Assembly (NCBI GenBank): GCA_050331615.1
Contig: JBHJGR010000160.1
Location: 6,482 to 70,481, forward strand
Source of the DNA: Elainellaceae cyanobacterium
GTDB lineage: Bacteria > Cyanobacteriota > Cyanobacteriia > CAKZMO01
Reading direction: 5' to 3'
Length of the DNA: 64,000 nucleotides
This document shows positions 974-55,391 of this stretch, piece after piece (the stretch's first letter is position 1; each line of letters starts with the position of its first letter). The position numbers and the translations under genes are program-made. The notes beneath the pieces are model-generated. The model did no database searches. It was not told the origin of the DNA and was given only the letters and a program-made list of their open reading frames with translations.

Positions 974-1783
974 CTAGCGACATTGGCGGGCATTGATTTC
1001 TTGATGGGCCTCTTGTCTCAGGGCTGCCAGCATGGCGGTTGACTTTGGCTCAAACCGCCCCAAAGCAGCGTAACTCAGGAGGCCAAAGTATTCCCGAAGT
1101 GACAGAAAAGCGACCTGTGCTGAGGGCAAATATCGGGGTAGGGAAACTGGATGGGGGATCACCTTTAGGCCAAGACTTTGAAACGTCAGCGTCGCTCGCA
1201 GCATGTGGGGGGCGTCCGTCACCAGCAGAACGCGCTTGGCATCGAGGGAGTGCAGCAGCAGCGAGGTAAACAGCGCCTCTTCATAGGTGGTCATGGCGCA
1301 GTTCACCTCTTGAACCACCTGGTCCAGATCGAGGTCGGGCGACGGTGCAGCCAAATCTTTCATGAGTCGCCGGGTCTCGGTAGCGGCATAGTGGCCGACG
1401 ATGAAAATTGTGGGGGCACGCTCCTGCTGCCAGAGATCGACTGCCTCCTGGTAGCGGGCATCCTCAGGGCGGCGGCTGAGCACCACAATGGCGTCGGCGG
1501 ACTGTCCTGAGTCACGGGGCACAAACCGCATCAGGTTGTTGACCGCCAGGGAAGCCATCAGGGGTGAGGTCACCACCAGGTAAAACGCCAGCAGAGCGAG
1601 GGCCGGTTTGCTGACCCACTGCTTGAGGGCGGGCGATCGCACCAGCCAGGGCACCACGATCACCATAAGCAGAGCCATCACCACGACTGAAGGCGCTGCC
1701 AGCCCATCAAAGATGCTCCAGTTCAGCCTGGTCCAGAGGCGCGTCGGCCAGAAACTCAGACCACATATCATCCATTTGATCAT
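974..1783 (-). CDS. DUF218/YdcF(ElyC)-like envelope-associated protein
   Basis: N-terminal TM segments and a C-terminal DUF218-like domain (IVVLSRRPED..IFIVGHYAA..VLLVTDAPHMLRA). Start set at an internal ATG, because the track ORF begins with a TTG inside repeat R2. Confidence 0.5.
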   Translation of the reverse strand: MIKWMICGLSFWPTRLWTRLNWSIFDGLAAPSVVVMALLMVIVVPWLVRSPALKQWVSKPALALLAFYLVVTSPLMASLAVNNLMRFVPRDSGQSADAIVVLSRRPEDARYQEAVDLWQQERAPTIFIVGHYAATETRRLMKDLAAPSPDLDLDQVVQEVNCAMTTYEEALFTSLLLHSLDAKRVLLVTDAPHMLRATLTFQSLGLKVIPHPVSLPRYLPSAQVAFLSLREYFGLLSYAALGRFEPKSTAMLAALRQEAHQEINARQCR

Positions 1784-1820
1784 ATGAATTGACCTCAAAA
1801 GATACGCTGACAGCAGCAGT

Positions 1821-1905
1821 AAGTGCTTGAGCAATTTCAGTTACATTTTTTTGGGTGCGTCCCTTGCGGGGGGCACATCCCAAGAAAGTAATTCCGTTTA
1901 ATACT
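1821..1905 (+). repeat. R2 hairpin repeat, copy 1 (AGTGCTTGAGCAATT..TACATTTT..GGGTGCG-hairpin-..AGAAAG)
   Basis: Aligns with the copies at 3034, 4498 and 32327. Lies between the divergent DUF218 gene and the UbiA gene. Confidence 0.75.
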
Positions 1906-2083
1906 TATTCCAGCTCAGTTATAGCAACTCCGCCGTTTAGACAAGCAGAATACAGAAAAATTATTCGTTTCTTAGAAATATGCCCGGTCTTACTTTGTAG
2001 AATCATCGCGATTACCCTCTACGCTCCTTTAGATATCGCTGGTATCCTTATGGGGATGGTTTTAAGTTCACTGGGGTGGTAGC

Positions 2084-3031
2084 GTGGCTGTTTCAGCTCA
2101 TCGGAAGTTTTCCCTCGCGTCTCATATCGCTGCGCTTCGTCCCCGTCAATGGACGAAGAACTTAGTCATTTTCGCCGCGCCAATTTTTGCGTTTAGCATC
2201 AATGCTGACTCGATGCTGGGCAGCGCTTTGGCATTCGTTCTATTTTGCTCGCTGTCAAGCAGCTTCTACCTGCTCAACGATGTTGCAGACGTGGAGTCCG
2301 ATCGGCAACATCCGGTCAAGTGCAATCGCCCGATCGCCTCGGGGATGGTCAAAGTGCCGACCGCGGTCGCGATGGCCATTGTGCTGATGGCAGGAGCCCT
2401 GACCATCGGCTGGATGCAGTCGTTTGATCTGGGTCGCGTCCTCTCGGCTTATGCCGTTCTACAAATCGCCTACAACCTGAAGCTTAAGCGGACGCCCATC
2501 CTCGATATCGTGGCGATCGCCACTGGGTTTGTTCTCCGCGCCTCTGCCGGGGCCGCTGCCACCAGCATTTCCCTCTCCCCCTGGTTCCTCCTGTGTACAG
2601 CGATGCTGGCCCTGTTCCTAGGCATCGAAAAGCGCAAGGCTGAGCTGCGGCTGCTCAAAATCAAAGGCGGCAAGACCCGCTCTGTGCTGAAGCGCTATTC
2701 CCTCTCCCTGCTCACCCGCATGGAGAGTACGGTCACCACGGGGGCCGTCATGAGCTATGCCCTTTGGAGTTCAGGCCCGCTAGTCAACGGAGCCACCACC
2801 CCCTGGATGCTGATAACCCTGCCATTTGTGCTGTACGGGATCTTTCGCTACCAGCTCTTGAGCGATCCCGAGGAGCTGGAGCGCCGGACAGAAGACAGCG
2901 AACCCGGTGGTCAAACCGAGCGTCCTGAGGAAGTATTGTTGCGCGATCGCCCAATCTTGCTAACCGTCCTGGGCTGGGTGTTGACGATTCTGGTGATTCT
3001 TTGGCTCCAAAAGCAGGGCATTATCCAGTAG
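2084..3031 (+). CDS. UbiA-family prenyltransferase, decaprenyl-phosphate 5-phosphoribosyltransferase (DPPR synthase, Rv3806c)-like
   Basis: Polytopic membrane protein. The motif NDVADVESDRQHPVKCNRPIASG closely resembles the Rv3806c-type NDxxDxExDRxHPxKxxRPIAxG signature. It is followed by DprE1-like and DprE2-like genes. GTG start. Confidence 0.7.
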   Translation: MAVSAHRKFSLASHIAALRPRQWTKNLVIFAAPIFAFSINADSMLGSALAFVLFCSLSSSFYLLNDVADVESDRQHPVKCNRPIASGMVKVPTAVAMAIVLMAGALTIGWMQSFDLGRVLSAYAVLQIAYNLKLKRTPILDIVAIATGFVLRASAGAAATSISLSPWFLLCTAMLALFLGIEKRKAELRLLKIKGGKTRSVLKRYSLSLLTRMESTVTTGAVMSYALWSSGPLVNGATTPWMLITLPFVLYGIFRYQLLSDPEELERRTEDSEPGGQTERPEEVLLRDRPILLTVLGWVLTILVILWLQKQGIIQ

Positions 3032-3033
3032 AT

Positions 3034-3110
3034 GAGTGCTTGAGCAATTCTAGCTACATTTTCTCAGGGGTGCGCCCCCCAGAAAGCAATTTGGTTTCAC
3101 TACTTCAATC
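3034..3110 (+). repeat. R2 hairpin repeat, copy 2
   Basis: Begins 3 nt after the UbiA stop codon and contains the hairpin GGGGTGCGCCCCCC. Confidence 0.75.
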
Positions 3111-3126
3111 AGAGGGAATCGGTCCT

Positions 3127-4497
3127 ATGTCACTTACCGTAGAACGCCCGATTACAGGTTGGGGAAGGTATCCGGTGGTCAAGAGTGCCCTGCATCGCCC
3201 CGAGAAGGTTGCTGCCCTCCGGCAGCTCTGCCAGCAGGACGCAGGTCATTCGTCCCTGGCTCGGGGAGCTGGGCGCAGCTATGGTGATGCCGCCCTCAAC
3301 GGCAGCGGTCAAACCATCCTCACTGAACGGCTCAACCGCATGCTGGCGTTCGATGCCCAAACCGGGCGGCTGCGCTGCGAGGCGGGCGTTGCCATCAAAG
3401 AGATTCTGGATGTATTCGTCCCCAAAGGCTGGTTTCCCTCGGTGACGCCGGGCACTAAGTTTGTCACCGTGGGTGGGGCGATCGCCTTCGATGTCCACGG
3501 CAAGAACCACCACCAGGACGGCTCCTTCTGCCGCCACGTGCATCGGTTCAATCTAATCCTCGCTTCGGGAGACGTGGTGACCTGCTCCCGCGACGAAAAC
3601 CCTGACCTGTTCTGGGCCACGGTAGGCGGGCTGGGGCTGACGGGCATCATTACCGATGTGGAATTCTCCCTCCAGCCCATCGAAACAGCCTACATCAACG
3701 GGCACAACATCAAGGCCCGCAACCTGGATGAGGCGATCGCCCTATTTGATGAGTATGAGCCTCAGTACCAATATTCTGTTGCCTGGATTGACTGTCTGGC
3801 TGCAGGAGCGTCCCTGGGGCGCAGCATCCTGATGCTGGGTAACCACGCCAAAGTTGAGGATCTGAGCCCAAATCAGCGCCCCTATCCGCTGGCGCTGAAG
3901 CCCAAGCAGCGCTTCCGCGTCACCTTTGACCCGCCCGCTGGCCTGCTGAATCGATATACGATGGGCGCGTTTAACACGCTCTACTACAGCCGCCAGCTTT
4001 CCTGCGAGGTGCGGGCGATCGCCGACTACGATTCCTTCTTCTACCCGCTGGACTTCATTTGGGACTGGAACCGCCTCTACGGCAAGCGGGGGTTTGTGCA
4101 GTATCAGTGCGTTTTTCCCCCAGAGACCAGCCGCACCGGGCTAATCGAGGTGCTAGAACAGTGCAGTCGCAAAGGCTGGGGCTCATTTCTGGCCGTTCTG
4201 AAGCGGTTTGGTCCCCAGGAGGGCCTGCTGTCCTTCCCCATGCCGGGGTTCACCCTAACGCTAGACATGCCCGTGAAGCCGGGGCTGTTCGAGTTCCTAG
4301 ACGGGCTAGACCACCTGGTAATTCGCCGGGGTGGTCGGGTTTATTTGGCAAAGGACGCCCGCCTTGGCCCTGACGCCTTCCGCGCCATGTATCCCAACTA
4401 CGCTGACTGGCTGGCCATCAAGTCGCGCGTCGATCCTGCCAATCAGTTCAAATCCACTCTGTCTGAACGGCTTCAGATTGAGCCAGCTCAGTGCTAA
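3127..4497 (+). CDS. FAD-dependent oxidoreductase, DprE1-like (decaprenylphosphoryl-beta-D-ribose 2'-oxidase family)
   Basis: FAD-binding PCMH-type N-terminus carrying GAGRSYGDAAL (compare the DprE1 motif G-RSYGD), and a C-terminal GGRVYLAKDARL (DprE1-like). Start moved to the ATG at 3127, preceded by GAGGGAA; the track ORF starts at 3001 inside the UbiA gene. Confidence 0.7.
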   Translation: MSLTVERPITGWGRYPVVKSALHRPEKVAALRQLCQQDAGHSSLARGAGRSYGDAALNGSGQTILTERLNRMLAFDAQTGRLRCEAGVAIKEILDVFVPKGWFPSVTPGTKFVTVGGAIAFDVHGKNHHQDGSFCRHVHRFNLILASGDVVTCSRDENPDLFWATVGGLGLTGIITDVEFSLQPIETAYINGHNIKARNLDEAIALFDEYEPQYQYSVAWIDCLAAGASLGRSILMLGNHAKVEDLSPNQRPYPLALKPKQRFRVTFDPPAGLLNRYTMGAFNTLYYSRQLSCEVRAIADYDSFFYPLDFIWDWNRLYGKRGFVQYQCVFPPETSRTGLIEVLEQCSRKGWGSFLAVLKRFGPQEGLLSFPMPGFTLTLDMPVKPGLFEFLDGLDHLVIRRGGRVYLAKDARLGPDAFRAMYPNYADWLAIKSRVDPANQFKSTLSERLQIEPAQC

Positions 4498-4580
4498 TGC
4501 ATTAAGTGCTAACGCATAATTCATCCATCCTATGGGGGTGTGCGCCCCCAAGCAAACAACTTCGGTTACCGACTTAGAGA
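4498..4580 (+). repeat. R2 hairpin repeat, copy 3 (diverged)
   Basis: Starts immediately after the DprE1-like stop codon and contains the hairpin GGGGGTGTGCGCCCCC. Confidence 0.65.
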
Positions 4581-4611
4581 CGTTCACGCAACCTCAAGCT
4601 ACGGGACGCAT

Positions 4612-5355
4612 ATGCGGGGAAAAACAGTTCTGATTATCGGCGCAACGTCTGCCATCGCGCGATCGCTCGCCCACCAGCTGGCGCGACGGGGTGCTGCCCT
4701 TCACCTGGCCGCCCGCGATCGGGTCGAAGTGGAGCGCATCGCCAGCGACATCGCGATTCGCTACGGCGTTCCCACCTCCTGGAGTGCCGTTGAGGCAACC
4801 CGCTACGATAGCCATCCTGATTTCTTTCAACAGGTGCTGGAGCGCACGGGGCGACTGGATGGAGTGGTAGTGTCCTTGGGGGAGCTGGGCGACCAGTCGA
4901 AAGCGCAAATTGATGTGAACCATGCCCAGCGCATCATCCACTCCAACTACACGGGAGTGGTGTCTATTTTGACGCCCATCGCTAACTATCTAGAGCAGCA
5001 GGGGCAGGGCTTTGTCATCGGCATTTCCTCAGTAGCGGGCGATCGCGGTCGGCCCAGCAACTACGTCTACGGTTCGGCGAAGGCCGCCCTGAGTGCGTTT
5101 CTCCAGGGGTTGCGTGGTCGGCTAGCCAAGGCGGGGGTGCACGTCCTCACGGTGAAGCCGGGATTTGTCGATACCAAAATGACCTTCGGCAAGTCCGGGA
5201 TGTTTTTGGTGGCTAGCCCCGATCAGGTCGCCGCCCAAATTCTGCGGGCGCTGGATCGGGGTCAGAACATTGCCTACGCTCCCTGGTTTTGGTTTGCCAT
5301 CATGGCCATTATCCGCGCCGTTCCTGAATTTATCTTTAAGCGACTTAACCTGTAA
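4612..5355 (+). CDS. Short-chain dehydrogenase/reductase, DprE2-like (decaprenylphosphoryl-2-keto-ribose reductase family)
   Basis: Rossmann motif GKTVLIIGATSAIARS, active-site region NYVYGSAKAAL, and about 247 aa, which is like DprE2. Start at ATG 4612. Confidence 0.65.
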   Translation: MRGKTVLIIGATSAIARSLAHQLARRGAALHLAARDRVEVERIASDIAIRYGVPTSWSAVEATRYDSHPDFFQQVLERTGRLDGVVVSLGELGDQSKAQIDVNHAQRIIHSNYTGVVSILTPIANYLEQQGQGFVIGISSVAGDRGRPSNYVYGSAKAALSAFLQGLRGRLAKAGVHVLTVKPGFVDTKMTFGKSGMFLVASPDQVAAQILRALDRGQNIAYAPWFWFAIMAIIRAVPEFIFKRLNL

Positions 5356-6983
5356 TGACTCCACCCCAGCCCGATTCAAGGCCCGTCGTGGCCCTCTTTG
5401 ACTTCGATGGCACCCTCACCCGAGGCGACTCCTTCCTGCCGTTTTTGCGAACGATGGGCGGGCCGTGGTACTACTGGTCGCGGATTTTGCTTCTAAGCCC
5501 CGTTCTCGGCGGCTATGCCCTGAAGGTTCTATCCAACTGGAAAACCAAAGAGGCCGTCCTAACCCGCTTTATTAAAGGGCGCACCGAAGCTGAGCTAGCG
5601 CAACTGGGCGATCGCTTTGCCCACGAGGTTATTCCTAGTCTGCTGCGACCTGAGGCAGTCGAACGGCTACGCTGGCACCAGCGGCAGGGGCACCGCACCA
5701 TTTTGGTCAGCGCCTCCATTGAGGCGTACCTGATTCCCTGGGCGCAGTCAATGGGTTTCGAGCAGGTGGTGAGCAGCCGCCTGGAGTGCCGCGACGGTAC
5801 CCTCACTGGGCGACTGGTAGGACGCAACTGCTATGGCGACGAGAAGGTGGCGCGGCTCCGTGAAGTGCTGGGCGACTTCGGCCAGTACCAGATTTATGCC
5901 TATGGGGATAGTCGGGGCGATCGCGAACTCCTCGCCATTGCCGATCATGCCTACTACCGCGAATTCCCGGTTGAAAGCGAAGATGAGACGCCAGGAAATA
6001 ATCCACCCGCCGGTACACCGCCCACTAGCGGCAACTGGGAGCGGGGGCTGATGCTCTCGGTGGCGGCAGCGGCGGCCCTCTACCTGGGGCTGGTGCTCTG
6101 GAGCGGGGCCGACCAAGTGTGGCAGGCGATTGACCTGCTGCCCGTCTGGCTCATTCCGGCCATGGCGGCGATCGTGTTTTTCGGCTACTGCCTCCGCTTC
6201 ATTCGCTGGCAGTGGTATTTGGCCGCAATGGGCTACTGGGTGCCCCTGAGGGACAGCTTTCGCATCTTTTTGGCCAGCTTTGCGCTGACGGCTTCTCCTG
6301 GGAAGGCAGGCGAGTCGGTGAAATCCCTGCTGCTGAAGCGGCGCTATGACATCCCCATTGCACCTACCTTGGCGGGACTGTTCTGCGAACGCTTCACCGA
6401 TGCCCTGTCGGTGGTGCTGCTGATTTGCCTCAGCTTTTTCTCTATGTTTCGGGCGTCATGGGCGATCGCCCTGGTGGGAGCCTTTCAGCTAGTCTTCATT
6501 CTGCTGCTCCAGCACCCCGCTTTCCTGAAGCAGCGGATTCTCAAACCCCTGGCCCGCTGGTCCAAGCTAGCAAATATTCTACAGAAGGTGGAAACCCTGA
6601 TCGATAGCGCCAGCCTTCTGCTGCGTCCCAAAATTCTGCTGGGCAGCACCGCCCTCGCCCTGATTGCCTGGGGACTGGAAGGAGTTGCCTTCTACATCAT
6701 TTTTCAAAACCTGGGGGCAACCAGCGTTGGCCTCTACCAGGCGGTGCTTACCCACACCGGTTCAGGTCTCCTGGGGGCGCTGTCCATGCTGCCGGGGGGC
6801 ATTGGCAGCGCTGAAGCCCTCACCGTCAGCCTGTCGATGATGTATGGCGCGAGCCAAATTGCGGCGGTTACCGGAACGTTTCTCATCCGCCTGCTGACCC
6901 TCTGGTTCGCGGTGGCAATCGGTATCGTGGCTATGCTGTCGCTGCAGCGATCGTCACGGCACCGGGTCGGTCGCCAGTCCTAG
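5355..6983 (+). CDS. Fusion protein: HAD-IB phosphatase domain plus LPG-synthase-TM (UPF0104, flippase-like) membrane domain
   Basis: N-terminus has the HAD motif I ALFDFDGTLTRGDSF and motif IV GDSRGDRELL. A Pro/Thr-rich linker follows, then about 7 TM helices with an LPG_synthase_TM-like signature (FLASFALTASPGKAGE). Its ATG overlaps the stop codon of the upstream SDR gene. Confidence 0.6.
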   Translation: MTPPQPDSRPVVALFDFDGTLTRGDSFLPFLRTMGGPWYYWSRILLLSPVLGGYALKVLSNWKTKEAVLTRFIKGRTEAELAQLGDRFAHEVIPSLLRPEAVERLRWHQRQGHRTILVSASIEAYLIPWAQSMGFEQVVSSRLECRDGTLTGRLVGRNCYGDEKVARLREVLGDFGQYQIYAYGDSRGDRELLAIADHAYYREFPVESEDETPGNNPPAGTPPTSGNWERGLMLSVAAAAALYLGLVLWSGADQVWQAIDLLPVWLIPAMAAIVFFGYCLRFIRWQWYLAAMGYWVPLRDSFRIFLASFALTASPGKAGESVKSLLLKRRYDIPIAPTLAGLFCERFTDALSVVLLICLSFFSMFRASWAIALVGAFQLVFILLLQHPAFLKQRILKPLARWSKLANILQKVETLIDSASLLLRPKILLGSTALALIAWGLEGVAFYIIFQNLGATSVGLYQAVLTHTGSGLLGALSMLPGGIGSAEALTVSLSMMYGASQIAAVTGTFLIRLLTLWFAVAIGIVAMLSLQRSSRHRVGRQS

Positions 6984-8408
6984 CTGAGCACTGAGGTCAG
7001 CGTCGTAGACCGCTAGCTCCCAGTTTTGCGCCGCCTGAACTTGGTCGATGGTCAGCCCGGCTACCCCTTGAAAATTAGCCCCAGACAGATCGGCATCGGT
7101 TAAGTCCGCCTCTGCTAGCTTGCTGCCGCTTAAATTCGCGCCAACCAGATTGGCTCCAGCCAGGTTGGCTTGCGTGAGGTCGGCGGTTGCTAAGGTCGCC
7201 TTCAGCAAATTAGCGCACCCTGAATCTGCTAGGGAGTCTTCCCCGTTGCTCGCCTGCGTTTCATCGGCAGCAATACAGGCGAGGTCGGCGCTTTGAAGGT
7301 TGCTGTTGGCTAAGTCAGCCCGCGATAGGTCCGTACCGGTTAAATCAGCGTTGATCAGATTGGTTTCAGTGAGATCAGCTCGACTGAGATTGGCTCGACT
7401 GAGGTTGGCATCAACAAGCTTCGCGCCCCTCAAGGAGGCCCGAGTCAAATTAGCGCCACTCAGGTCACTGCTGCTGAGGATGGCGCGATTGAGGATCGTC
7501 TGGCTTAAATCGGTGCAGAGCGGTGCGGAATCGACTACTTCGGCCAGACAACCCAACTGGGCGTTTGTCAGATCAGCCGCTTCCAGGGTGGCATCGGTAA
7601 AGCTCACCCCCTGGAGCCGGGCGTCCCGTAGTTTCGATTGCTGCAGTTGGGCTCCCTGCAGCTGGGCTCCCTGCAGGTCAGCGCTCCAGAGCCCTGTGTT
7701 CTGCAGCCGGGCGTATCGCAGTTCAGCAAACGGTAGCTCGACTTTCGGCAGATGGGCATTCTGCACGTCCAACCCCCGTAGGCTAATGCAGTTGGGCATA
7801 AACCCCCCCACAACCGGCATCCTGCGAAAATCGGCGTAGCGCCAGGTACGGGGATCGAGCCAAGCGGCGGTGGGGCGCTCTTCCTCGGCTTGAATGTCCC
7901 AATAGCTACACCCCTGGTTGAGGGTTTGCAGCGCCTGAATGCGTCCGGCGTTGTCCGTGCGTCCTTCGGCACCCGTGATGATTTGCCAAGCCTGGGTGTA
8001 GGTTTCCTGTTCACGGGTATCAGCCTGGAAGATGTAGACCAAAAGCCCCAGCACAATGGTAAACTCCCCCAGCAGACGCACTGTGCGTACCGCGAAGTGT
8101 TTGACGGCTTCAACCCCCTGGGCCGACCGCTGCTGGTAGGCTTCGAACATTTGCCGATACTCATCCGTATCGATTTCAGAGGCTTTGGCAAGCTGGATTA
8201 AGCAATAGTCCCGCTCTAGGGGATCTCCAATGGCGCGGAGCCGGACAAATTCCTGGCGCAGCTTCTCCAGCCCTGTAGCGGTGAGGTTATCGAGGGAAGA
8301 TGAGGGTTCCGGCGATCGCTCCACTCCTGCATCTTCTGCCGCTGCTCCGCCAAGGGCGGGTTGGGGCTGGATGGGTTGCTTGGGATCGGAACCCGATACA
8401 TGGTCCAT
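6954..8408 (-). CDS. Pentapeptide-repeat protein with a non-repeat N-terminal domain
   Basis: Long runs of A(D/N)LxG/A pentapeptides (ANLSRADLTETNLINADLTGTDL..). Convergent with the HAD-fusion gene, overlapping it by 30 nt. Confidence 0.6.
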   Translation of the reverse strand: MDHVSGSDPKQPIQPQPALGGAAAEDAGVERSPEPSSSLDNLTATGLEKLRQEFVRLRAIGDPLERDYCLIQLAKASEIDTDEYRQMFEAYQQRSAQGVEAVKHFAVRTVRLLGEFTIVLGLLVYIFQADTREQETYTQAWQIITGAEGRTDNAGRIQALQTLNQGCSYWDIQAEEERPTAAWLDPRTWRYADFRRMPVVGGFMPNCISLRGLDVQNAHLPKVELPFAELRYARLQNTGLWSADLQGAQLQGAQLQQSKLRDARLQGVSFTDATLEAADLTNAQLGCLAEVVDSAPLCTDLSQTILNRAILSSSDLSGANLTRASLRGAKLVDANLSRANLSRADLTETNLINADLTGTDLSRADLANSNLQSADLACIAADETQASNGEDSLADSGCANLLKATLATADLTQANLAGANLVGANLSGSKLAEADLTDADLSGANFQGVAGLTIDQVQAAQNWELAVYDADLSAQLGLATDPVP

Positions 8409-8650: not shown

Positions 8651-9304
8651 TTACTCACTCATAAGGGTGTCGAGCTGCTGCTGCACCGGCGGGGGCAGCA
8701 GGACGCGGTTGACGCCGTGGATGACGCCGTTACCGGCCTCGATATTCGGCTGCACGACGCTGCCGTTGTTAACGATGATCCGGTCTTCTGCCACGCGCAC
8801 GGCGACGCCACCGCCCGTCAGGACGGGAATGGTGCCGGTAGAGATATCGCTGGCAACCAGCTCACCCGAAGCGACGTGATAGCGGAGAATCTGCTGAAGG
8901 ATTTCCCGGTTCTCAGGCTCCAGCAGGGCTTCCAGCACACCGTCAGGAAGCTGTTCAAAGGCTTCATCGGTGGGGGCAAACACGGTGTAAGGCCCTTCAC
9001 CGGCAAGGGTGTCAGCCAGACCAGCGGCCTGCACAGCCTGCACCAGCGTATTAAAGGATTCGCTGCCGGATGCGACGTCTACGATGCTCATATCGGCAGA
9101 CATGCCGCTGCCCATTCCAGGCTCGGCTTCGTCCATCATTGCGCCGCCTTCGGTACTTTCTTCCATCGTGCTGGCACCATCGGTGTGGTTGGATGCGATA
9201 GCGGTTTGGGCGATCGCACTGGGAGCAGCGATGGATAGACCCAGCAGCCCTGCTGCCAGCCCGACCTTCTTAGCTAATTTGATTGCGATTTGGCGAGTCG
9301 TCAT
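8651..9304 (-). CDS. Fasciclin (FAS1) domain secreted protein
   Basis: Signal peptide (MTTRQIAIKLAKKVGLAAGLLGLSIAAPSAIA) and FAS1 motifs (TVFAPTDEAF, NGVIHGVNRVLLPP). Start set at the internal ATG 9304. Confidence 0.7.
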   Translation of the reverse strand: MTTRQIAIKLAKKVGLAAGLLGLSIAAPSAIAQTAIASNHTDGASTMEESTEGGAMMDEAEPGMGSGMSADMSIVDVASGSESFNTLVQAVQAAGLADTLAGEGPYTVFAPTDEAFEQLPDGVLEALLEPENREILQQILRYHVASGELVASDISTGTIPVLTGGGVAVRVAEDRIIVNNGSVVQPNIEAGNGVIHGVNRVLLPPPVQQQLDTLMSE

Positions 9305-9529
9305 ACTCAAAATCCTTTTGATACCTCCTTGGGTTCTATTAAAAACGTAAATAAATATAAATGAATGACCCTCCGTCGATAGGTCGACATTGGCCACAGC
9401 GGCGGCAAGGGATTCCCCCAACCGATTACGCTGTTTCACTCACGGGGCAGATTCGCGCGCCCTTTCTAATCTGAGAGTCTGAAAGGGTCATCATCTTTGG
9501 ATGATTTTTGTTGGATTACTTGAATCGGT

Positions 9530-20441: not shown

Positions 20442-20597
20442 CCATGGACATCAATAAGGTCGGTGGGGGTGCGCCCCCCGCCATAGCGTTGGTTGTTTAT
20501 TTATGGCTACCTGCTTAATTAGGTGAGTTTGCTAGCCTTGAGCAAGAGTAGAGGTTTGTAGGCCATTTCTGAGAAAAGTTCTACCCCCAGTGAAACG

Positions 20598-28651: not shown

Positions 28652-28971
28652 GGTGTCAGGACGCTCTCCCAGGCTAATAAAACAGCAGTGACCAGAACCA
28701 AGATTTCGATTGTAGCTAAGGGTGGGGAAGGTACGGCCATCGCCGATTTAAGCAGGACAGAAGGTCGTCCGGCTTTGCATTAGCCGTTTCGATGTCCTAA
28801 AAATCTGCGCGATCGCGACTAACCCAGCACCATCATGCGGCAAAACTGAGAGTAGATCCAGCAAATCGCGATTTTTTAGCCGCAGCGGACCCTCGCTTGA
28901 GTTCTGGCTTGGCGTGGCTTCGTCCCATCGGCATCAATCCATCGGCATCAACCCACCTGCATCGACCCACT

Positions 28972-30345
28972 ATGAGTCCTATGTCATCCCACTGTTCCCT
29001 CCGCCAGGAAATTGCTGAATGCCTCCACCTCTCCCTACCTCTGGCAGGAGCACAGTTGGCCTTTGCGGCCACGGGATTCGTCGATACGGTGATGATGGGT
29101 GGCTTAGGCAGCGATTATTTGGCAGCGGGTGGCCTGGGGGCGACCACGTTCACCTCCCTGCTGGTGGTGGGCACGGGGGTGGTGTCAGCCGTCAGTCCCT
29201 TCATCGCGGAGGCATACGGTGCCCAGCAGGCTGACCGCGCCGGACGGATGATGGACCAGGGCATCTGGCTGGCGATCGCCGTGGCGCTGCCGATCACGAT
29301 CCTGTTGGGGAATGCCGCCCCGGTGCTGCGGCTCCTGGGCCAGGAGGAGACGGTGGTGCGACTGGCGGCCCAATACCTGCGGGCGATCGCCTGGGGCTAT
29401 CTGCCGGGGCTGCTGTTTGTGGTGCTGCGGAGCTTTGTTACTGCCCTGTCCCAGCCCCGGCCAGTGATTCTGATCATGGGGTTGGGCGTTGGTCTTAACG
29501 CGATCGCCAACTATATTTTGATGTACGGCAAGCTGGGACTACCGGCTCTGGGGCTGGTAGGCATCGGCTGGTCGAGCACCCTGGTGTACTGGAGCATGGG
29601 TTTTGCCCTGGTGGTTTATGTGATGCGTCAGCCCCAGTATGCGGTCTATCGTCCGTTTCGGACTGTTCATCGCTTCCAGGGGCGGCTGTTTGGGGAGCTG
29701 ATAGCGGTGGGTCTACCCATTGGGATTCTGGCTACCTTTGAAACGGGGATGTTCAGCGTGGTGACGTTCATGGCAGGGCACCTGGGCACGACGGCCCTGG
29801 CTGCCCATCAAATTGCCCTGCAAACCATCGTCATTACTTTTATGGTGCCTTTGGGTATCTCTCAGGCCATGACGGTACGCGTCGGGCAGCTCGTTGGCCG
29901 ACAGCAGGAAAGTCAGGCTCGCCGAGCGGGATACGTAGGGCTGGCGCTGGGCTTAGCCTTCATGGGAAGCATGGCCACCGTAATGCTGGTCGCGCCCCAG
30001 CTCATTGTGGCCCTCTATCTGGACATAACCCTACCCGATAACCAGGATGTGGTGCGAGGGGCGATCGCTCTACTGGCCGTGGGCGGTATCTTTCAGCTAT
30101 TTGACGGGGCTCAGGTCGTTTCTGCCGGAGCCCTAAGGGGCCTAAAGGATACCCGCATCCCCATGGTGGTTGGCGTGGTGGCCTACTGGATCGTGGGGTT
30201 GCCCAGCGGCTACCTGGGCGGATTTGTGCTGGGTCTGGGGGGCGTGGGGCTGTGGTGCGGCCTGGCGATTGGGTTGGCGATCGCTGCCATTACCCTCACT
30301 TGGCGGTTCCACCGACTCCTGGCACCCAGGTTAGACGGGTATTAA
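28972..30345 (+). CDS. MATE-family efflux transporter (NorM/DinF-like)
   Basis: Twelve TM helices in two internal 6-TM repeats, with typical MATE motifs. Start at ATG 28972. Confidence 0.75.
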   Translation: MSPMSSHCSLRQEIAECLHLSLPLAGAQLAFAATGFVDTVMMGGLGSDYLAAGGLGATTFTSLLVVGTGVVSAVSPFIAEAYGAQQADRAGRMMDQGIWLAIAVALPITILLGNAAPVLRLLGQEETVVRLAAQYLRAIAWGYLPGLLFVVLRSFVTALSQPRPVILIMGLGVGLNAIANYILMYGKLGLPALGLVGIGWSSTLVYWSMGFALVVYVMRQPQYAVYRPFRTVHRFQGRLFGELIAVGLPIGILATFETGMFSVVTFMAGHLGTTALAAHQIALQTIVITFMVPLGISQAMTVRVGQLVGRQQESQARRAGYVGLALGLAFMGSMATVMLVAPQLIVALYLDITLPDNQDVVRGAIALLAVGGIFQLFDGAQVVSAGALRGLKDTRIPMVVGVVAYWIVGLPSGYLGGFVLGLGGVGLWCGLAIGLAIAAITLTWRFHRLLAPRLDGY

Positions 30346-32321
30346 TTTGGGGTGAGCGGGGGGGGCTCAGAGGCGATCGCGCAGTCCAGCCCACTCACCG
30401 AGGTTTCCGGCCCAGCGGGTACCAGGCCAACCACATGAGGAACAGGGCGGGGCGTATACATCGTCATCGGTTCGCCTCGATAGGCGAGGGAGGTGCTTGC
30501 CCCCGAATCGAGCATGACGGCGTCGCGGAACCCCGCCTGCTGCAAAACCTCGCCCAGATCGACCGAGCCAATGCGCCCGTTGGTAATGCCAATGACGGGC
30601 TGCCCGGCCTGATTAATGCCCCAGAAAGCCCGGTGGCGCTCGGCGTCAAAGTCAAATAGGTCGCCAAAAGAAGCGGGCGATCGCGCCTGACCATCCTTCA
30701 CCAGCCAGGCTGCCCCCACAAAGGCATCGGTCACATCGGGCATCTCGGCCCGCACCCCCGCCCGGGAGTTGTGGTTTGCCGCCTCAAAGGGGATAAAGCG
30801 TACCTCGTCTGGACTGATTAGCACCAGCGGGCGACCGTTGAGCTTCAGGTTTTCCCCCGGATTGCCCGGCACAAATCGTCGGGTGTGCTGGCTCAGCACC
30901 GGACCAATCATCACGTTGGAGTCCAGGTACTTCATGGAGAAGAAGCCGCCGTCCACCACCGCCACCGCCTCGGTGCCTGCCATAATCTCTTCCACCTGGT
31001 AGCGGCTGTCGGCGTGAATTGTAATCGGTTTGCCGCCCGTCACCAGGGTCAGGGGCAGATCTTCAAAGACGGGGTGGGTCTTGCGGATGGGAGCCGTGAA
31101 GTCAAACCCGGTTCCCCAGCGGGGAGACGGAGGACCGCCCCAGGTTTCCTCAACCGCCCGCCGCAGTTGGGACTGCCCCATGCGATCCACTGCCAGCAGG
31201 CTTTGAGATGCCCCGGCAAACCGATCCTCGGCGTTGTCCATCGTCAATGCTGCCCGGTAGCCCGCCTCGGCTACCGCCTCGGCTACTCGTTCGTTGTAGT
31301 TGCCCTCGGGATAGGTGAAGTAGCGGATGGGTATCCCCAGCTCCGCTTCCAGGATGCGCTTCGACTCCACCACCTCCAGCCGCAGATCCGCATCTGTCAA
31401 ATCACGCAAATCACGGGGATGGTTGATGCTGTGGGCGGCGATAGTAACCAGCGGGTCGGCGGCCATTTCCCGGAGCTGATCCCAGTTGACTCCAGGACGG
31501 CCATGATCGCGCCCCACCTTATAGGTGTAGATGGAAAACAGCCCCGGATAGCCATACTGTTTCAACAGCGGATAGACGTGCTCGTAGTGGCCGATGTACC
31601 CGTCATCAAAGGTCAGCAGGATGGGTTTCTCGGGCAGCCCCAGCCCGGTGCGCAGGTGAGTCACTAGCTGATCCATGCTGATGGGAGTTAGCCCGTTTTC
31701 CTGAATCAGCTGGAGGTGGCTCTCAAACTCTTCCGGCGTGACGTCAAAGAAAACCTCTTTGACCGGCAGGATATCGTGATACATCATTACGGGCACCTTG
31801 GCCAGTCGCGCCTGCTCATGCAGGTCGGGCCAGGGGGCGGCGGAGAAGGAGGCCACCAGTTTGGGGCCGAGGCCCTGCATCATCGACTCCAGACCCATCT
31901 CGGGAGACTGTACCCAGGTCGCCACCTCGACGGCCTGGCGGGCAACGCCATTGAGCACGGCGGGAACGGCCACTTCGGGAGGACGACACACTGCCTGGGC
32001 TGGGTCATCAATATCTGGGTCGGCACCGTCGAGTTCCGTACTGCCTGAGCTGGGGTAGGTCGGACGGCTAAAGCTGGCTAGCAGGGAAGGGGCATTGGCT
32101 GGTTCGCGTGGGATGGCGGTTCCCCCCATTACAGCGATCGGGGTTGCTGCCGGAGCAACGGTTGCCAGGACGCCAGTAGGGGCGAGGAGGGTAATTAGCC
32201 CCAAGCTGGCGCAGATACGGGGCCAGAGGGTGCGATCGCCCTTAGCAACATCGGCATTCATTGAGTGGGGCACAGTCGAGGGTTGAGCGGAGGATGGCTT
32301 CACAGTGAATCCCATGAACAA
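30342..32321 (-). CDS. Polysaccharide deacetylase (NodB/CE4) fused to a C-terminal phosphodiester-glycosidase (NAGPA-like) domain
   Basis: NodB motifs (LLTFDDGYIGHYEHVYPLL, AAHSINHP), followed by a roughly 250-aa NAGPA-like domain. N-terminal signal/TM. Start is ambiguous: TTG at 32321 or ATG at 32315. Confidence 0.6.
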   Translation of the reverse strand: MFMGFTVKPSSAQPSTVPHSMNADVAKGDRTLWPRICASLGLITLLAPTGVLATVAPAATPIAVMGGTAIPREPANAPSLLASFSRPTYPSSGSTELDGADPDIDDPAQAVCRPPEVAVPAVLNGVARQAVEVATWVQSPEMGLESMMQGLGPKLVASFSAAPWPDLHEQARLAKVPVMMYHDILPVKEVFFDVTPEEFESHLQLIQENGLTPISMDQLVTHLRTGLGLPEKPILLTFDDGYIGHYEHVYPLLKQYGYPGLFSIYTYKVGRDHGRPGVNWDQLREMAADPLVTIAAHSINHPRDLRDLTDADLRLEVVESKRILEAELGIPIRYFTYPEGNYNERVAEAVAEAGYRAALTMDNAEDRFAGASQSLLAVDRMGQSQLRRAVEETWGGPPSPRWGTGFDFTAPIRKTHPVFEDLPLTLVTGGKPITIHADSRYQVEEIMAGTEAVAVVDGGFFSMKYLDSNVMIGPVLSQHTRRFVPGNPGENLKLNGRPLVLISPDEVRFIPFEAANHNSRAGVRAEMPDVTDAFVGAAWLVKDGQARSPASFGDLFDFDAERHRAFWGINQAGQPVIGITNGRIGSVDLGEVLQQAGFRDAVMLDSGASTSLAYRGEPMTMYTPRPVPHVVGLVPAGPETSVSGLDCAIASEPPPLTPN

Positions 32322-53983: not shown

Positions 53984-54074
53984 GACAATGGGCGATCGCC
54001 CAATCCGGCTACAGCATATGCGAGTCTCGTTCTATCCTGAGAGAGGAGATCAATCCGGACCCGCCACACCGCTC

Positions 54075-55391
54075 ATGAGCTACTACATCGCGCCCCGCTT
54101 CCTTGACAAACTTGCCGTTCACATCACCAAAAACTATCTCAACCTGCCGGGGGTGCGGGTACCGCTGATTCTAGGCATCCACGGGCGCAAAGGGGAAGGT
54201 AAAACCTTCCAGTGCGAGCTGGCCTTTGAGCGCATGGGTATCGAAGTGGTGCACATGTCGGGGAGCGAGCTGGAGAGTCCCGATGCGGGCGACCCATCCC
54301 GCCTGATTCGCCTGCGCTACCGGGAGGCGGCAGAACTGGTGCGGGTGCGGGGACGGATGGCTGCCCTGATGATTAACGACATCGATGCTGGGGCAGGTCG
54401 ATTTGATGAGGGCACCCAATACACGGTTAATACCCAGCTCGTGAACGGTACGCTAATGAACATCGCGGATAACCCGACGAATGTCCAGCTCCCCGGCAGC
54501 TATGACGATCAGCCCATTCAGCGGGTACCGATTATCGTCACGGGTAATGACCTCTCTACTCTCTACGCTCCTCTAGTGCGAGAGGGGCGCATGGAGAAAT
54601 TTTATTGGGAACCCGATCGCGCCGATCGCATCGGCATTGTTAGCGGCATCTTTGCCCCTGATGGTCTGTCCAATACAGCCGTGACGGAGCTGGTAGACAC
54701 GTTCCCGCAACAGTCCATCGACTTTTACAGCGCCCTCCGTTCCCGCCTATACGACGAGCAGATACGCCACTTCATTCACCAGGTCGGGCTAGAGCGGGTG
54801 TCGGCCCGGGTAGTGAATAGCAAGGAAGCGGCTCCGGTTTTTCTCAAGCCCGATTTTAGTTTGCAGCATTTGCAAGAGATGGGCGATCGCATCGTCCAAG
54901 AGCAGCGCCGCCTGGAAGATACGGGCCTAGTGCGCGAGTACAACCGAGCGCTAAACTACCGGCAGCAACAGGCCGATCGGCAACAGGCCGAGCAGCAAGA
55001 AGTGCCCGCTGGCAATGGCTCGTCAACACCATCTACCGACTCAGCCTCGTTCTATCGGGCTTACTCATCTCCACCGGAGCTGGACTACCTGACCGCCACT
55101 CACGCATCTGCGCCGACCAACGGTGCCCCGCCTTTGGAGGCAGACACCCTCCAGCAGGTGCGTGGAACCTTGGCCCAAGGAGGGCGCATCGGCATTGAGC
55201 ACGCGGACGAGCGCCGATTTCGCGTTAATTCCTGGTCAAGCTGCACGTCAGTAGAGGGCACTGAGGAGGAGGTGTTAGGCCATCTGGCAAGCTGCCTGCA
55301 AGACTATGAAAAAGAATATGTGCGGCTCGTGGGTATCGACCCTGCTGCCAAGCGACGCACATTTGAGGCGATCGTGCAGCGCCCCCAATGA
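54075..55391 (+). CDS. rca: Rubisco activase (cyanobacterial type, AAA+ with C-terminal extension)
   Basis: GIHGRKGEGKTFQCELAFERMGIEVVHMSGSELESPDAGDPSRLIRLRYREAAE aligns with the plant/cyanobacterial Rca Walker A and sensor region. Start at ATG 54075 (MSYYIAPRFL). Confidence 0.8.
   Translation: MSYYIAPRFLDKLAVHITKNYLNLPGVRVPLILGIHGRKGEGKTFQCELAFERMGIEVVHMSGSELESPDAGDPSRLIRLRYREAAELVRVRGRMAALMINDIDAGAGRFDEGTQYTVNTQLVNGTLMNIADNPTNVQLPGSYDDQPIQRVPIIVTGNDLSTLYAPLVREGRMEKFYWEPDRADRIGIVSGIFAPDGLSNTAVTELVDTFPQQSIDFYSALRSRLYDEQIRHFIHQVGLERVSARVVNSKEAAPVFLKPDFSLQHLQEMGDRIVQEQRRLEDTGLVREYNRALNYRQQQADRQQAEQQEVPAGNGSSTPSTDSASFYRAYSSPPELDYLTATHASAPTNGAPPLEADTLQQVRGTLAQGGRIGIEHADERRFRVNSWSSCTSVEGTEEEVLGHLASCLQDYEKEYVRLVGIDPAAKRRTFEAIVQRPQ

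Follow-up and report, generated by a model that had tools for sequence, protein, structure and literature searches.

What would a diderm phototroph without arabinogalactan do with four genes that resemble the mycobacterial DPA pathway, in which PRPP is turned into lipid-linked arabinose? The first-pass annotation of the cyanobacterial DNA analysed here, a 64-kb stretch referred to as the window, had read them in this way, and the locus is very probably a cyanobacterial D-arabinofuranose (D-Araf) donor operon. Judged from its sequence, the operon is likely to make polyprenyl-phospho-β-D-arabinofuranose at the inner membrane, assembling this donor on the cytoplasmic face and passing it to the periplasmic side. 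The identity of the enzymes and their co-occurrence stood as in the earlier reading; two points can be refined, the carrier, which is probably undecaprenyl (C55) rather than decaprenyl, and the phosphatase, whose HAD type is that of the Citrobacter ORF15 PRP domain and not the PAP2 type of Rv3807c. This type of pathway is already known from mycobacteria, from Pseudomonas pilin arabinosylation, and from the work of Kelly et al. 2024 (PMC11127046), who describe widespread "three-component" systems for pentofuranose. New here are a phosphatase that is joined to a PplT-type membrane protein or has one as its genomic neighbour, in place of the MATE or GtrA candidate flippases, and a five-part set seen in three or more gene orders, with the HAD domain joined in other loci to the UbiA synthase or to a GT-C transferase.

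The operon, its predicted synthase and its predicted epimerase pair

The four co-directional genes of the earlier annotation were all found as + strand ORFs (2084-3031, 3001-4497, 4540-5355 and 5355-6983), together with every motif it had quoted: NDVADVESD at residues 65-73 of the UbiA protein, and GAGRSYGD and GGRVYLAKD in the oxidase. By Pfam and NCBIfam, the products belong, in order, to UbiA, FAD_binding_4 (with ALO), adh_short, and HAD plus LPG_synthase_TM. The overlapping or nearly overlapping boundaries hold for genes 3 and 4, the sole overlapping pair (1 nt, TAATG), but not for genes 1/2 and 2/3, since homologues support later starts for genes 2 and 3. Gene 2 starts at ATG 3127 (the 91% identical P0001 has 455 aa, with 100% coverage) and gene 3 at ATG 4612, which gives it the 247 aa also seen in L081, L085 and L086, so that the true gaps are 95 nt and 114 nt (Table 1). 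Upstream of these starts, the gene 2 ORF is open as far as TTG 3001 and that of gene 3 as far as GTG 4540. Both gaps hold a hairpin-containing insert of ~65-75 nt that is absent from the closest relative, and in the 91%-identical L081 they measure 27 nt (genes 1-2) and 35 nt (genes 2-3); the predicted fold of either insert is no better than that of shuffled sequence.

Table 1. Coordinates of the operon features within the window
Feature	Position	Strand	Assignment	Match or detail
Gene 1	2084..3031	+	UbiA-fold polyprenyl-phosphate 5-phosphoribosyltransferase (PPPRS / DPPR synthase type), 315 aa	PF01040 E=1e-25
Gene 1-2 gap	3032..3126	+	GC hairpin repeat inserted	GGGGTGCGCCCCCC at 3067-3080
Gene 2	3127..4497	+	DprE1-like FAD-dependent polyprenylphospho-ribose 2'-oxidase, 456 aa	PF01565
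Gene 2-3 gap	4498..4611	+	Hairpin repeat, copy 2	GGGGTGTGCGCCCC at 4535-4548
Gene 3	4612..5355	+	DprE2-like classical SDR, putative polyprenylphospho-2-keto-pentofuranose reductase, 247 aa	adh_short E=5e-35
Gene 4, N-terminal domain (residues 1-215)	5355..5999	+	HAD-IB phosphatase, proposed polyprenyl-P-ribose-5-phosphate 5'-phosphatase (PRP)	PF12710 E=3e-38
Gene 4, C-terminal domain (residues ~227-535, then tail and stop)	6033..6983	+	LPG_synthase_TM / "PplT", polytopic; candidate flippase or membrane hub for lipid-linked pentofuranose	PF03706 E=1e-40; TIGR00374 "flippase-like domain"

The identities that had been proposed for the four products, an Rv3806c-like UbiA protein, a DprE1-like oxidase, a DprE2-like SDR, and a HAD phosphatase joined to a flippase-like membrane domain, are all supported. 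Gene 1 matches NF008978, "decaprenyl-phosphate phosphoribosyltransferase", at 265.9 bits, above the NCBI curated cut-off of 207, and its PDB relatives are Rv3806c structures only (8j8j, E=2.8e-45, 38.5% identity). Residue roles in Rv3806c come from published mutagenesis and structure (PMC10994848), and 15 of the 17 mapped active-site and substrate-binding residues are kept in gene 1 (R22, K28, Y70, N73, D74, D77, D81, K87, R90, Q135, Y138, K143, K191, R192 and E195), the substitutions being Y157 to F and K208 to S. A quinone- or chlorophyll-type UbiA identity was rejected, the heme o, chlorophyll and 4HB-type models all scoring below 30 bits.

M. tuberculosis DprE1 in the PDB matches gene 2 at E=1.5e-101 with 40.5% identity, whereas the matches to lactone oxidases and GlcD are far weaker (E=1e-11 to 1e-16), and a GlcD or gulonolactone-oxidase identity was rejected. 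The DprE1 profile NF053785 scores 471.8 bits (E=2.7e-141), below its equivalog cut-off of 500. Tyr60, His132, Lys134, Gln334, Gln336 and the catalytic Lys418 of DprE1 have their equivalents in gene 2; the equivalents of Asn385 and Cys387 are both Thr, and all members of the clade have Thr at the Asn385 position. With Thr in place of Cys387, covalent inhibition by benzothiazinones is not expected. The best PDB match of gene 3 is M. tuberculosis DprE2 (21gq_C, E=1.3e-29, 32% identity), and the protein carries the motifs GATSAI, NYT, SSVAG and YGSAK; it scores 314 bits against NF005489 (cut-off 267) and 188 bits against the DprE2 profile NF053786, short of the cut-off of 250.

A phosphatase joined to a PplT domain, and its neighbours

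The HAD domain of gene 4 matches TIGR01490 at 163 bits and has the fold of HAD phosphatases (3fvv, E=2e-10); invariant in the family are its nucleophile motif DFDGT (residue 16) and GDSRGD (residue 184). The C-terminal 310 residues match PF03706 and superpose on MprF in a Foldseek search (7duw_A, E=6e-5 over 334 columns); the AlphaFold model has a pLDDT of 85.7. PF03706 is the flippase domain of MprF, and the C-terminal domain of AglD is predicted to flip lipid-linked sugars (PMC5898192). For this family, known as the MprF flippase domain, PplT or COG0392 (AglD C-terminal domain, GpgF, YbhN), translocation of modified lipids has been either predicted or demonstrated, the lipids being the product of a cytoplasmic enzyme that is fused to the family member or encoded next to it. 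Unlike MprF, gene 4 has no aminoacyl-PG synthase domain, and its partner enzyme, a phosphatase, belongs to a polyprenyl-P-pentose pathway. We know of no stand-alone PF03706 protein shown to flip a polyprenyl-P-sugar. The PplT preprint lists the "dehalogenase-like hydrolase + PplT" architecture and proposes no function for it.

Do these genes keep company elsewhere? Of 80 genome loci selected on DprE1, 64 have DprE2 directly downstream, no more than 1.5 kb away, and 49 contain UbiA. A second set, 80 metagenome loci picked on HAD/PplT motifs only, contains 62 with at least one of UbiA, DprE1 and DprE2, and 27 with all five parts, and the co-occurrence expected by the earlier annotation is thereby upheld. 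The HAD-PplT fusion adjoins DprE2 in all seven fusion loci examined (L001, L081, L085, L086, L088, L089 and L092), and L091 is a matching cluster in which HAD and PplT are separate, overlapping genes; in other lineages PplT is likewise a separate gene beside HAD, UbiA, DprE1 and DprE2. Across cyanobacteria, Salinibacter and many metagenome lineages, the five parts are arranged in three or more gene orders; such variety points to selection acting on the set as a whole and not to inherited synteny. HAD domains of the gene 4 type (38-58% identical) are elsewhere fused to UbiA (P0217), GT87 (P0213) and PMT_2 (P0231). Locus L090, with UbiA followed by PplT and then a PMT_2-HAD fusion, is a minimal three-component system in which PplT occupies the flippase slot. 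In the locus sets surveyed, PplT-bearing loci have no GtrA match and GtrA-bearing loci have no PplT, a pattern that suits alternatives for a single functional slot; alphaproteobacterial loci among them are arranged as HAD-UbiA, GtrA, DprE1, DprE2.

The proposed route and its alternatives

In the route that we propose, the PPPRS of gene 1, its active site kept, would convert PRPP to lipid-P-ribose-5-P, and the HAD domain of gene 4, tethered to the membrane, would then take off the 5'-phosphate, as its fusions, its gene context and the ORF15 precedent described below suggest. The DprE1-like flavoenzyme would oxidise C2' and the DprE2-like SDR would reduce it, epimerising ribose to arabinose, consistent with their conserved catalytic residues. 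In the weakest step, to which fold, family precedent and conserved linkage point, the PF03706 domain may carry the finished lipid-sugar to the other side of the membrane or, failing that, organise the pathway there. Finally, a GT-C transferase whose gene lies in another part of the genome would use the donor to arabinosylate an envelope glycan or protein. As the first-pass annotation had noted, the 64-kb window contains no GT-C transferase by Pfam on all large ORFs, by TM count of all ORFs, or by PMT_2-type and Rv1490-type profile searches, nor was an acceptor recognised within it, and the use of the donor in this organism therefore remains a proposal. The 57 closest polytopic neighbours in related loci include 12 PMT_2, three GT87, three PMT and one GtrII protein, and cyanobacterial-type clusters have, embedded in them, a member of the Rv1490 family whose fold is GT-C-like. 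Literature searches for D-arabinofuranose in any cyanobacterial glycan found nothing, and to our knowledge it has not been demonstrated in one.

Is the PF03706 domain the flippase? It could instead be an anchor or assembly hub holding the HAD domain, and perhaps DprE1/E2, near the lipid substrate while another protein flips the donor, with the enzymology as described above, a reading that we consider rather unlikely. Fusion of HAD to whatever membrane partner the pathway offers (UbiA, GT87, PMT_2, Acyl_transf_3, DUF6080, PplT) is the pattern expected of simple tethering, and since the phosphatase acts early, before epimerisation, and the flippase last, no kinetic logic couples the two and their fusion may reflect membrane tethering only. 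GtrA-like proteins, analogous to the PF03706 candidates, have been proposed to act as hubs and not as flippases; Rv3789 and PsPA7_6247 were so reinterpreted, and pilin glycosylation persisted without them. However, PplT is separate from HAD in the E1-E2-HAD-UbiA-PplT order, in L090 and in L091, as if kept for more than anchoring HAD, its mutual absence with GtrA fits a shared slot, and its fold matches that of a proven lipid translocase.

The sugar and the substrate of gene 4 can also be questioned. It is improbable that the product is a lipid-linked pentofuranose other than D-Araf (ribose, a stable 2-keto sugar or another epimer) made by a DprE1/DprE2 clade of different specificity. In favour of such a product, both enzymes fall under the NCBI equivalog cut-offs (472 vs 500; 188 vs 250), the two Thr replacements lie at Asn385 and Cys387, accessory epimerases diversify the pentose, ORF13 leading to Xylf (Kelly et al., PMC11127046), and L090, without any epimerase, presumably adds Ribf. 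Against this, DprE1 identity is 40% with Lys418, His132, Lys134, Gln334 and Gln336 kept, an oxidase paired with a classical SDR is the DprE1/E2 arrangement, found with Araf in all surveyed cases of known glycan structure, and the DprE1 of P. aeruginosa makes D-Araf although it shares only 33% identity with its Mtb counterpart. That gene 4 is unrelated, a PgpC-like phosphatidylglycerophosphatase fused to a phospholipid translocase and adjoining the cluster by chance, is hardly credible: its 1-nt overlap with the DprE2 stop codon, the linkage in all examined fusion loci and three gene orders, and the fusion of the same HAD type to PPPRS and GT-C enzymes outweigh a weak TIGR01545 PgpC match (E=2e-6), a relative named "phosphatidylglycerophosphatase C" in one source, and the action of the PF03706 proteins MprF, YbhN and GpgF on phospholipids.

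Relation to known pentofuranose systems

The mycobacterial pathway (Rv3806c, Rv3807c, DprE1 = Rv3790, DprE2 = Rv3791, Rv3789 and the Emb/Aft GT-C enzymes) has a homologous synthase and epimerase pair, and the same logic from PRPP through lipid-P-ribose-5-P and lipid-P-ribose to lipid-P-arabinose would apply here. The cyanobacterial phosphatase is HAD-IB, whereas Rv3807c is PAP2-type, the candidate flippase is PF03706 and not GtrA-like as is Rv3789, and no Emb/Aft genes lie nearby. In the Citrobacter youngae system of Kelly et al. (ORF15 PRP-PPPRS, ORF14 MATE, ORF12 GT-C of GT136, and optionally the epimerase ORF13 or DprE1/E2), the HAD "PRP" domain of ORF15 dephosphorylates polyprenyl-P-ribose-5-P, and DprE1/E2 homologues mark Araf-adding systems (PMC11127046). 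Common to both are the PPPRS, a HAD-type phosphoribose phosphatase, a dedicated transporter candidate, and DprE1/E2 as accessory epimerases that predict Araf; related loci of the cyanobacterial type also carry a GT-C beside the module, although the window does not. The cyanobacterial HAD is fused to the transporter candidate, which is MprF-flippase-like, whereas theirs is fused to the synthase and the transporter is a MATE protein; their text and supplement mention neither cyanobacteria nor PF03706.

The D-Araf cluster of Pseudomonas aeruginosa PA7/Pa5196 (PsPA7_6245-6249) has UbiA-type synthase, DprE1 and DprE2 homologues, as here, and its transferase TfpW is encoded elsewhere in the genome, a situation that we infer for the cyanobacterium too. 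It differs in a GtrA-like protein (6247) encoded between synthase and DprE1 and a phosphatase that is a separate gene (6245), and both acceptor (pilin) and transferase are known. The noeC gene and its neighbours in Azorhizobium caulinodans likewise form a UbiA/DprE-type module that provides D-arabinose for a secreted glycoconjugate, the Nod factor, in a Gram-negative host; there phosphatase and synthase form one fusion protein, the place of PplT is taken by a GtrA-like protein, and the acceptor is known, the lipo-chitooligosaccharide.

The operon and its surroundings

The operon lies in a region of cyanobacterial character: the window encodes CemA/PxcA and a RuBisCO-activase-like protein, its nearest relatives are cyanobacterial MAGs, and the GC content of the cluster (57-61%) is the same as that of its flanks. 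The activase-like protein joins an AAA+ module to a small-subunit-like domain, which we take to be the known cyanobacterial 'activase-like' architecture. The first-pass annotation had described four co-directional genes with overlapping or near-overlapping boundaries. The four co-directional ORFs are where it placed them and contain the motifs that it quoted, but the description of the boundaries holds only for genes 3 and 4, which overlap by a single base (TAATG). Homologues place the starts of genes 2 and 3 downstream of the ORF starts. P0001, a homologue 91% identical to gene 2, has 455 aa at full coverage, and 247 aa is the length called for gene 3 in the related loci L081 (a 91%-identical relative), L085 and L086. 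With these later starts, genes 1 and 2 are separated by 95 nt and genes 2 and 3 by 114 nt, with no overlap.

Features of the operon and of other parts of the window
Feature	Coordinates	Strand	Remarks
ORF 1, UbiA synthase	2084-3031	+	
ORF 2, DprE1-like oxidase	3001-4497	+	Homologues place start at ATG 3127 (456 aa)
ORF 3, DprE2-like SDR	4540-5355	+	Homologues place start at ATG 4612 (247 aa)
ORF 4, HAD-PF03706 fusion	5355-6983	+	
DUF218/ElyC-like gene	974-1834	-	Divergent, upstream of operon
Pentapeptide-repeat protein	6954-8408	-	484 aa; convergent; its 3' end shares 30 nt with gene 4
Secreted fasciclin-domain protein	8651-9439	-	Acidic Gly/Ser/Thr/Asp-rich N-terminal region
ORF of 735 aa	23911-26118	+	No Pfam match; no predicted membrane spans
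MATE transporter	28897-30345	+	22 kb from operon
Polysaccharide deacetylase and NAGPA (phosphodiester glycosidase) protein	30342-32321	-	Adjoins MATE gene
RuBisCO-activase-like AAA+ protein	53988-55391	+	C-terminal RuBisCO small-subunit-like domain

Both gaps within the operon (3032-3126 and 4498-4611) contain an insert of ~65-75 nt bearing the hairpin GGGG(G)TG(TG)CGCCCC(C), and a third copy of the hairpin is found at 20466-20479 (three copies found versus 0.34 expected). L081 is without both inserts, its gaps being 27 and 35 nt, and the inserts look like a small dispersed repeat that has landed twice in the operon. RNA folding of the two repeat-bearing gaps was no better than that of shuffled sequence (z=0.9 and 0.3), so a structured regulatory RNA in the gaps is without support. 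Across 1700-7300, no promoter-like sites were found and terminator-like sites occurred at chance frequency. The DUF218/ElyC-like and pentapeptide-repeat genes on either side of the operon were rejected as parts of the system and probably lie outside it, their synteny being shared only with L081 and absent from L085, L086, L088 and L091.

Relationship of the four gene products to characterized enzymes

Gene 1 scores 90.6 bits against the Pfam UbiA model PF01040 (cut-off 34.2) and 265.9 bits against NF008978, the NCBIfam equivalog for decaprenyl-phosphate phosphoribosyltransferase, passing the cut-off of 207. Models for quinone, heme o, chlorophyll and tocopherol-type enzymes all gave less than 30 bits, which disposes of the alternative that gene 1 encodes a quinone- or chlorophyll-type UbiA. 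Its sole PDB relatives are two cryo-EM entries of Rv3806c (E=3e-45). Roles in binding Mg2+, PRPP and decaprenyl phosphate have been assigned to Rv3806c residues from the structure (PMC10994848), and 11 of the 13 residues around the metal, PRPP and lipid phosphate are identical in gene 1 (R22, K28, Y70, N73, D77, K87, R90, Q135, Y138, K143 and K191), which also retains D74, D81, R192 and E195. The substitutions are Y157 to Phe, a variant that also occurs among mycobacteria (PMC10994848), and K208 to Ser. Judged by fold, curated score and binding residues, gene 1 probably belongs to the clade of the UbiA superfamily that contains Rv3806c and the polyprenyl-phosphate 5-phosphoribosyltransferases (PPPRS).

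Gene 2 encodes a two-domain FAD protein of the vanillyl-alcohol-oxidase type, with DprE1 as its nearest relative. It matches every DprE1 structure at E~1e-101 (best 1.5e-101, residues 45-493, 40.5% identity), whereas for lactone oxidases, cytokinin oxidases and GlcD the E values lie between 1e-8 and 1e-12, and an origin among GlcD or gulonolactone-type flavoproteins can be set aside. Its score of 471.8 bits (E=2.7e-141) against the DprE1 equivalog NF053785 is slightly below the cut-off of 500, a value that presumably mirrors the mycobacterial and actinobacterial reference enzymes. The equivalents of Tyr60, His132, Lys134, Gln334 and Gln336 of Mycobacterium tuberculosis DprE1 are identical in gene 2, as is that of Lys418, the catalytic lysine that the first-pass annotation had singled out for checking together with Cys387; all six are active-site residues with a catalytic role in DprE1. 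The equivalent of Cys387 is Thr, and that of Asn385 is likewise Thr. In DprE1, Cys387 is the site of covalent attack by benzothiazinones and is dispensable for catalysis, so the gene 2 enzyme is predicted to be insensitive to covalent benzothiazinones, with its reaction unaffected.

The gene 3 product belongs to the classical SDRs, and its Gly-rich cofactor motif and Asn/Ser/Tyr/Lys tetrad are intact (GATSAI, NYT, SSVAG, YGSAK). Its best PDB match is M. tuberculosis DprE2 (E=1.3e-29, 32% identity), 13 orders of magnitude better than the next, FabG (9e-17). It falls short of the DprE2 equivalog NF053786 (188.3 bits, cut-off 250) and passes the related model NF005489 (PRK07102; 314 bits, cut-off 267).

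Gene 4 encodes a HAD-IB phosphatase (residues 1-215, with DFDGT and GDSRGD motifs) followed by a disordered linker and a PF03706 domain, the latter scoring 140 bits (cut-off 33.4). The DxDxT nucleophile motif is the DFDGT at residues 16-20, in which D16, D18 and T20 do not vary among 39 homologues; encoded alongside a PPPRS, this domain would qualify as the phosphoribose phosphatase (PRP) of a three-component system. An AlphaFold model made with 39 homologues has a mean pLDDT of 85.7, and in Foldseek its N-terminal domain retrieves HAD phosphatases and its membrane domain the MprF cryo-EM structure 7duw_A (E=5.7e-5, 334 columns). By its Pfam score and its modelled fold, the membrane domain belongs to the MprF-type flippase domain family (PF03706, PplT, COG0392), in which it is a candidate translocase. 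Pfam detects no aminoacyl-phosphatidylglycerol synthase domain (DUF2156-type) in gene 4, where the partner domain is the HAD phosphatase, so gene 4 is not MprF proper.

Conservation of the gene set

DprE1 homologues are abundant, with at least 8000 candidates, and the best matches come from many cyanobacterial orders. Eighty genome loci, representing most bacterial phyla, were chosen among the matches listed on DprE1 motifs alone. About two of the loci listed are cyanobacterial, and the cyanobacterial gene contexts described here come instead from contigs that encode individual homologues. The expectation that the genes would co-occur in other genomes was borne out: DprE2 is found no more than 1.5 kb downstream of DprE1 in 64 of the 80 loci listed, 49 of the loci also contain UbiA or contain it in place of that pair, and all three genes are together in 39. 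Most non-cyanobacterial loci differ from the window in that the synthase is a HAD-UbiA fusion of ~480 aa (21 of 37 clustered proteins), and alphaproteobacterial loci have a GtrA-family protein between synthase and DprE1, which is the Pseudomonas PA7 arrangement. The HAD-PF03706 fusion family comprises ~80 clusters from cyanobacteria and Salinibacter. The fusion gene follows DprE2 in all seven fusion loci examined (L001, L081, L085, L086, L088, L089 and L092), and in another locus, L091, the same cluster encodes HAD and PF03706 in two genes that overlap.

A metagenome scan that used only HAD and PF03706 motifs gave 80 loci, of which 62 contain UbiA, DprE1 or DprE2 and 27 contain the complete five-part set. 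For the 29 loci that are 7 kb or longer, these figures are 27 and 19. The five parts are found in three orders: UbiA-E1-E2-[HAD-PplT], UbiA-[HAD-PplT]-E2-E1 and E1-E2-HAD-UbiA-PplT, where E1 and E2 are DprE1 and DprE2 and PplT is the PF03706 domain. That the set persists in spite of rearrangement is a good reason to regard it as a functional unit. In one locus (L090:7933-12238) the UbiA gene is followed directly by genes for a free-standing PF03706 protein and for a fusion of PMT_2 with HAD. The locus has neither DprE1 nor DprE2, and is a putative minimal three-component ribofuranose-type system with PF03706 in the flippase position, which is held by MATE in Citrobacter.

Four loci with the order UbiA-[HAD-PplT]-E2-E1 (L098, L105, L106 and L107; e.g. 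L106:2163-2903) have a further PF03706 gene after the fusion gene, a divergent paralogue with 27-31% identity. In the variant cyanobacterial locus L087:10001-18247, DprE1 is grouped with an SDR of greater length (290 aa) and a free-standing HAD. Its UbiA gene is on the opposite strand, 4.2 kb downstream of HAD, where its neighbors encode EF-hand proteins, a transposase and a condensation-domain (PapA-like) protein; the module may have been rearranged or repurposed.

Proposed donor pathway, and candidates for its flippase, transferase and acceptor

Homology, retained catalytic residues and co-occurrence all favor the original DPA-type interpretation, after the mycobacterial decaprenyl-phospho-arabinose pathway, and a lipid-linked D-arabinofuranose donor pathway is the best-supported function for the operon. 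Gene 1 would convert PRPP and polyprenyl phosphate to polyprenyl-P-ribose-5-P, the HAD domain of gene 4 would remove the 5'-phosphate, the gene 2 and 3 products would oxidize and then reduce C2' to give arabinose, the PF03706 domain would translocate or hand off the donor, and a GT-C transferase encoded outside the window would use it. The synthase and epimerization steps are predicted from strong homology and retention of catalytic residues. The proposed dephosphorylation rests on fusions, gene context and the demonstrated activity of the HAD 'PRP' of Citrobacter ORF15 (PMC11127046), and the translocation step, the weakest, rests on fold, family precedent and conserved linkage.

Systems of this general kind have been described before, as the DPA pathway in mycobacteria and as the D-Araf cluster for pilin in Pseudomonas. 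Kelly et al. 2024 described three-component systems that are widespread and in which DprE1/E2 homologues accompany Araf (PMC11127046). Our locus shares with the three-component systems a PPPRS and a HAD-type PRP with DxDxT. Unlike them, it is without a MATE flippase, a PF03706 domain being in that slot, and has no GT-C within the 64 kb, although related loci do carry one. New with respect to those descriptions are the occurrence in cyanobacteria, PF03706 as a fifth conserved part that replaces MATE/GtrA, and the fusion of the phosphatase to PF03706. Neither cyanobacteria nor MprF-like proteins are mentioned in the text and supplement of Kelly et al. 2024 (PMC11127046), a 'dehalogenase-like hydrolase' plus PplT architecture is listed in the PplT preprint with no function proposed, and our literature search gave no relevant report of DprE1 or of arabinofuranose from cyanobacteria.

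What might act as the flippase of such a pathway? DPA pathway chemistry is a drug target in tuberculosis, and of the candidate flippases for the lipid-linked pentose, Rv3789/GtrA-like proteins are disputed and MATE has an inferred role. PF03706 is a third candidate family, repeatedly and tightly linked to the pathway and fused to its phosphatase, which provides a concrete, testable protein, and we regard its candidacy for lipid-pentofuranose translocation as the most useful lead. The fusions can also be read differently. HAD domains 38-58% identical to that of the window are fused elsewhere to UbiA (P0217, with 46% identity), GT87 (P0213) and PMT_2 (P0231), and because the phosphatase is fused so promiscuously to varied membrane partners, membrane tethering of the soluble enzyme may itself be under selection, whatever the partner. 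PF03706 would then be a hub and not a flippase, an explanation that we keep open alongside translocation, for which the MprF-like fold and the conserved linkage speak. In its broadest form the translocation model is tentative, and we consider it a reasonable possibility short of an even chance: PF03706 proteins would be dedicated polyprenyl-P-pentofuranose translocases in many bacteria (cyanobacteria, Salinibacter and uncultured lineages), filling the step disputed in mycobacteria and Pseudomonas, and cyanobacterial GT-C families missed by annotation (e.g. Rv1490/PF27463-like) would put D-Araf on an undescribed envelope glycan or protein. The MATE transporter of the window was rejected as the pathway flippase, since it lies 22 kb away among housekeeping genes and is linked to the operon in no relative. 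The HAD-IB domain, which can stand at either end of these fusions, also has as partners Acyl_transf_3, DUF6080 and a polytopic domain that lacks annotation (full protein set P0213, P0217, P0220, P0231, P0233 and P0234).

The absence of a visible GT-C from the window was confirmed across the 64 kb by a Pfam scan of all large ORFs and a survey of polytopic ORFs, which besides genes 1 and 4 are only an ABC permease, CemA, the MATE transporter and a Na+/H+ exchanger. PMT_2-type and Rv1490-type profile searches of the window gave no match, and the best tblastn match in the window to polytopic proteins from within related clusters had E=0.27. TfpW of P. aeruginosa is a precedent for an unlinked transferase of the kind proposed here. 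Of 171 related loci, 70 have a polytopic ORF (at least 7 TM and 330 aa) no more than 5 kb from the module, and the 57 closest such neighbors include PMT_2 (12), GT87 (3), PMT (3) and GtrII (1) proteins and a few transporters, most being without a match among the Pfam models used. In cyanobacterial-type clusters the polytopic gene often separates DprE2 from the fusion gene (L001, L085, L086 and L092). These embedded proteins are mutually unrelated by BLAST and were rejected as a single family; one recurring family (L092, L095 and L106) is Pfam PF27463 'Rv1490', with a predicted model of pLDDT 85.9 and pTM 0.89, and hhalign gave no match between this set and the PMT_2 set (probability 0.1). NCBIfam comparison of five polytopic neighbors found two with weak matches, well short of the cut-off (E~1e-11), to a 'putative glycosyltransferase' family from Leptospira.

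The module of Calothrix, Spirulina and Salinibacter is part of polysaccharide clusters (GT2, GT4, sugar epimerases, Wzi), and this context suggests that it could serve side-chain modification of surface polysaccharides there. More widely, the operon predicts D-arabinofuranose envelope glycoconjugates, patchily distributed, in Nostocales, Pleurocapsales, Spirulina, and Leptolyngbya- and Synechococcales-type strains; we know of no earlier study of a sugar donor pathway of this type in these groups. Public records name the genes merely 'FAD-binding oxidoreductase', 'SDR family oxidoreductase' and 'HAD-IB family hydrolase', and more specific names are warranted. The secreted fasciclin-domain protein of the window is a conceivable surface glycoprotein acceptor, its synteny being shared only with the close relative L081. 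The L081 fasciclin protein is longer and repeat-rich (TDDSGY... and EGGVIDESQPG repeats).
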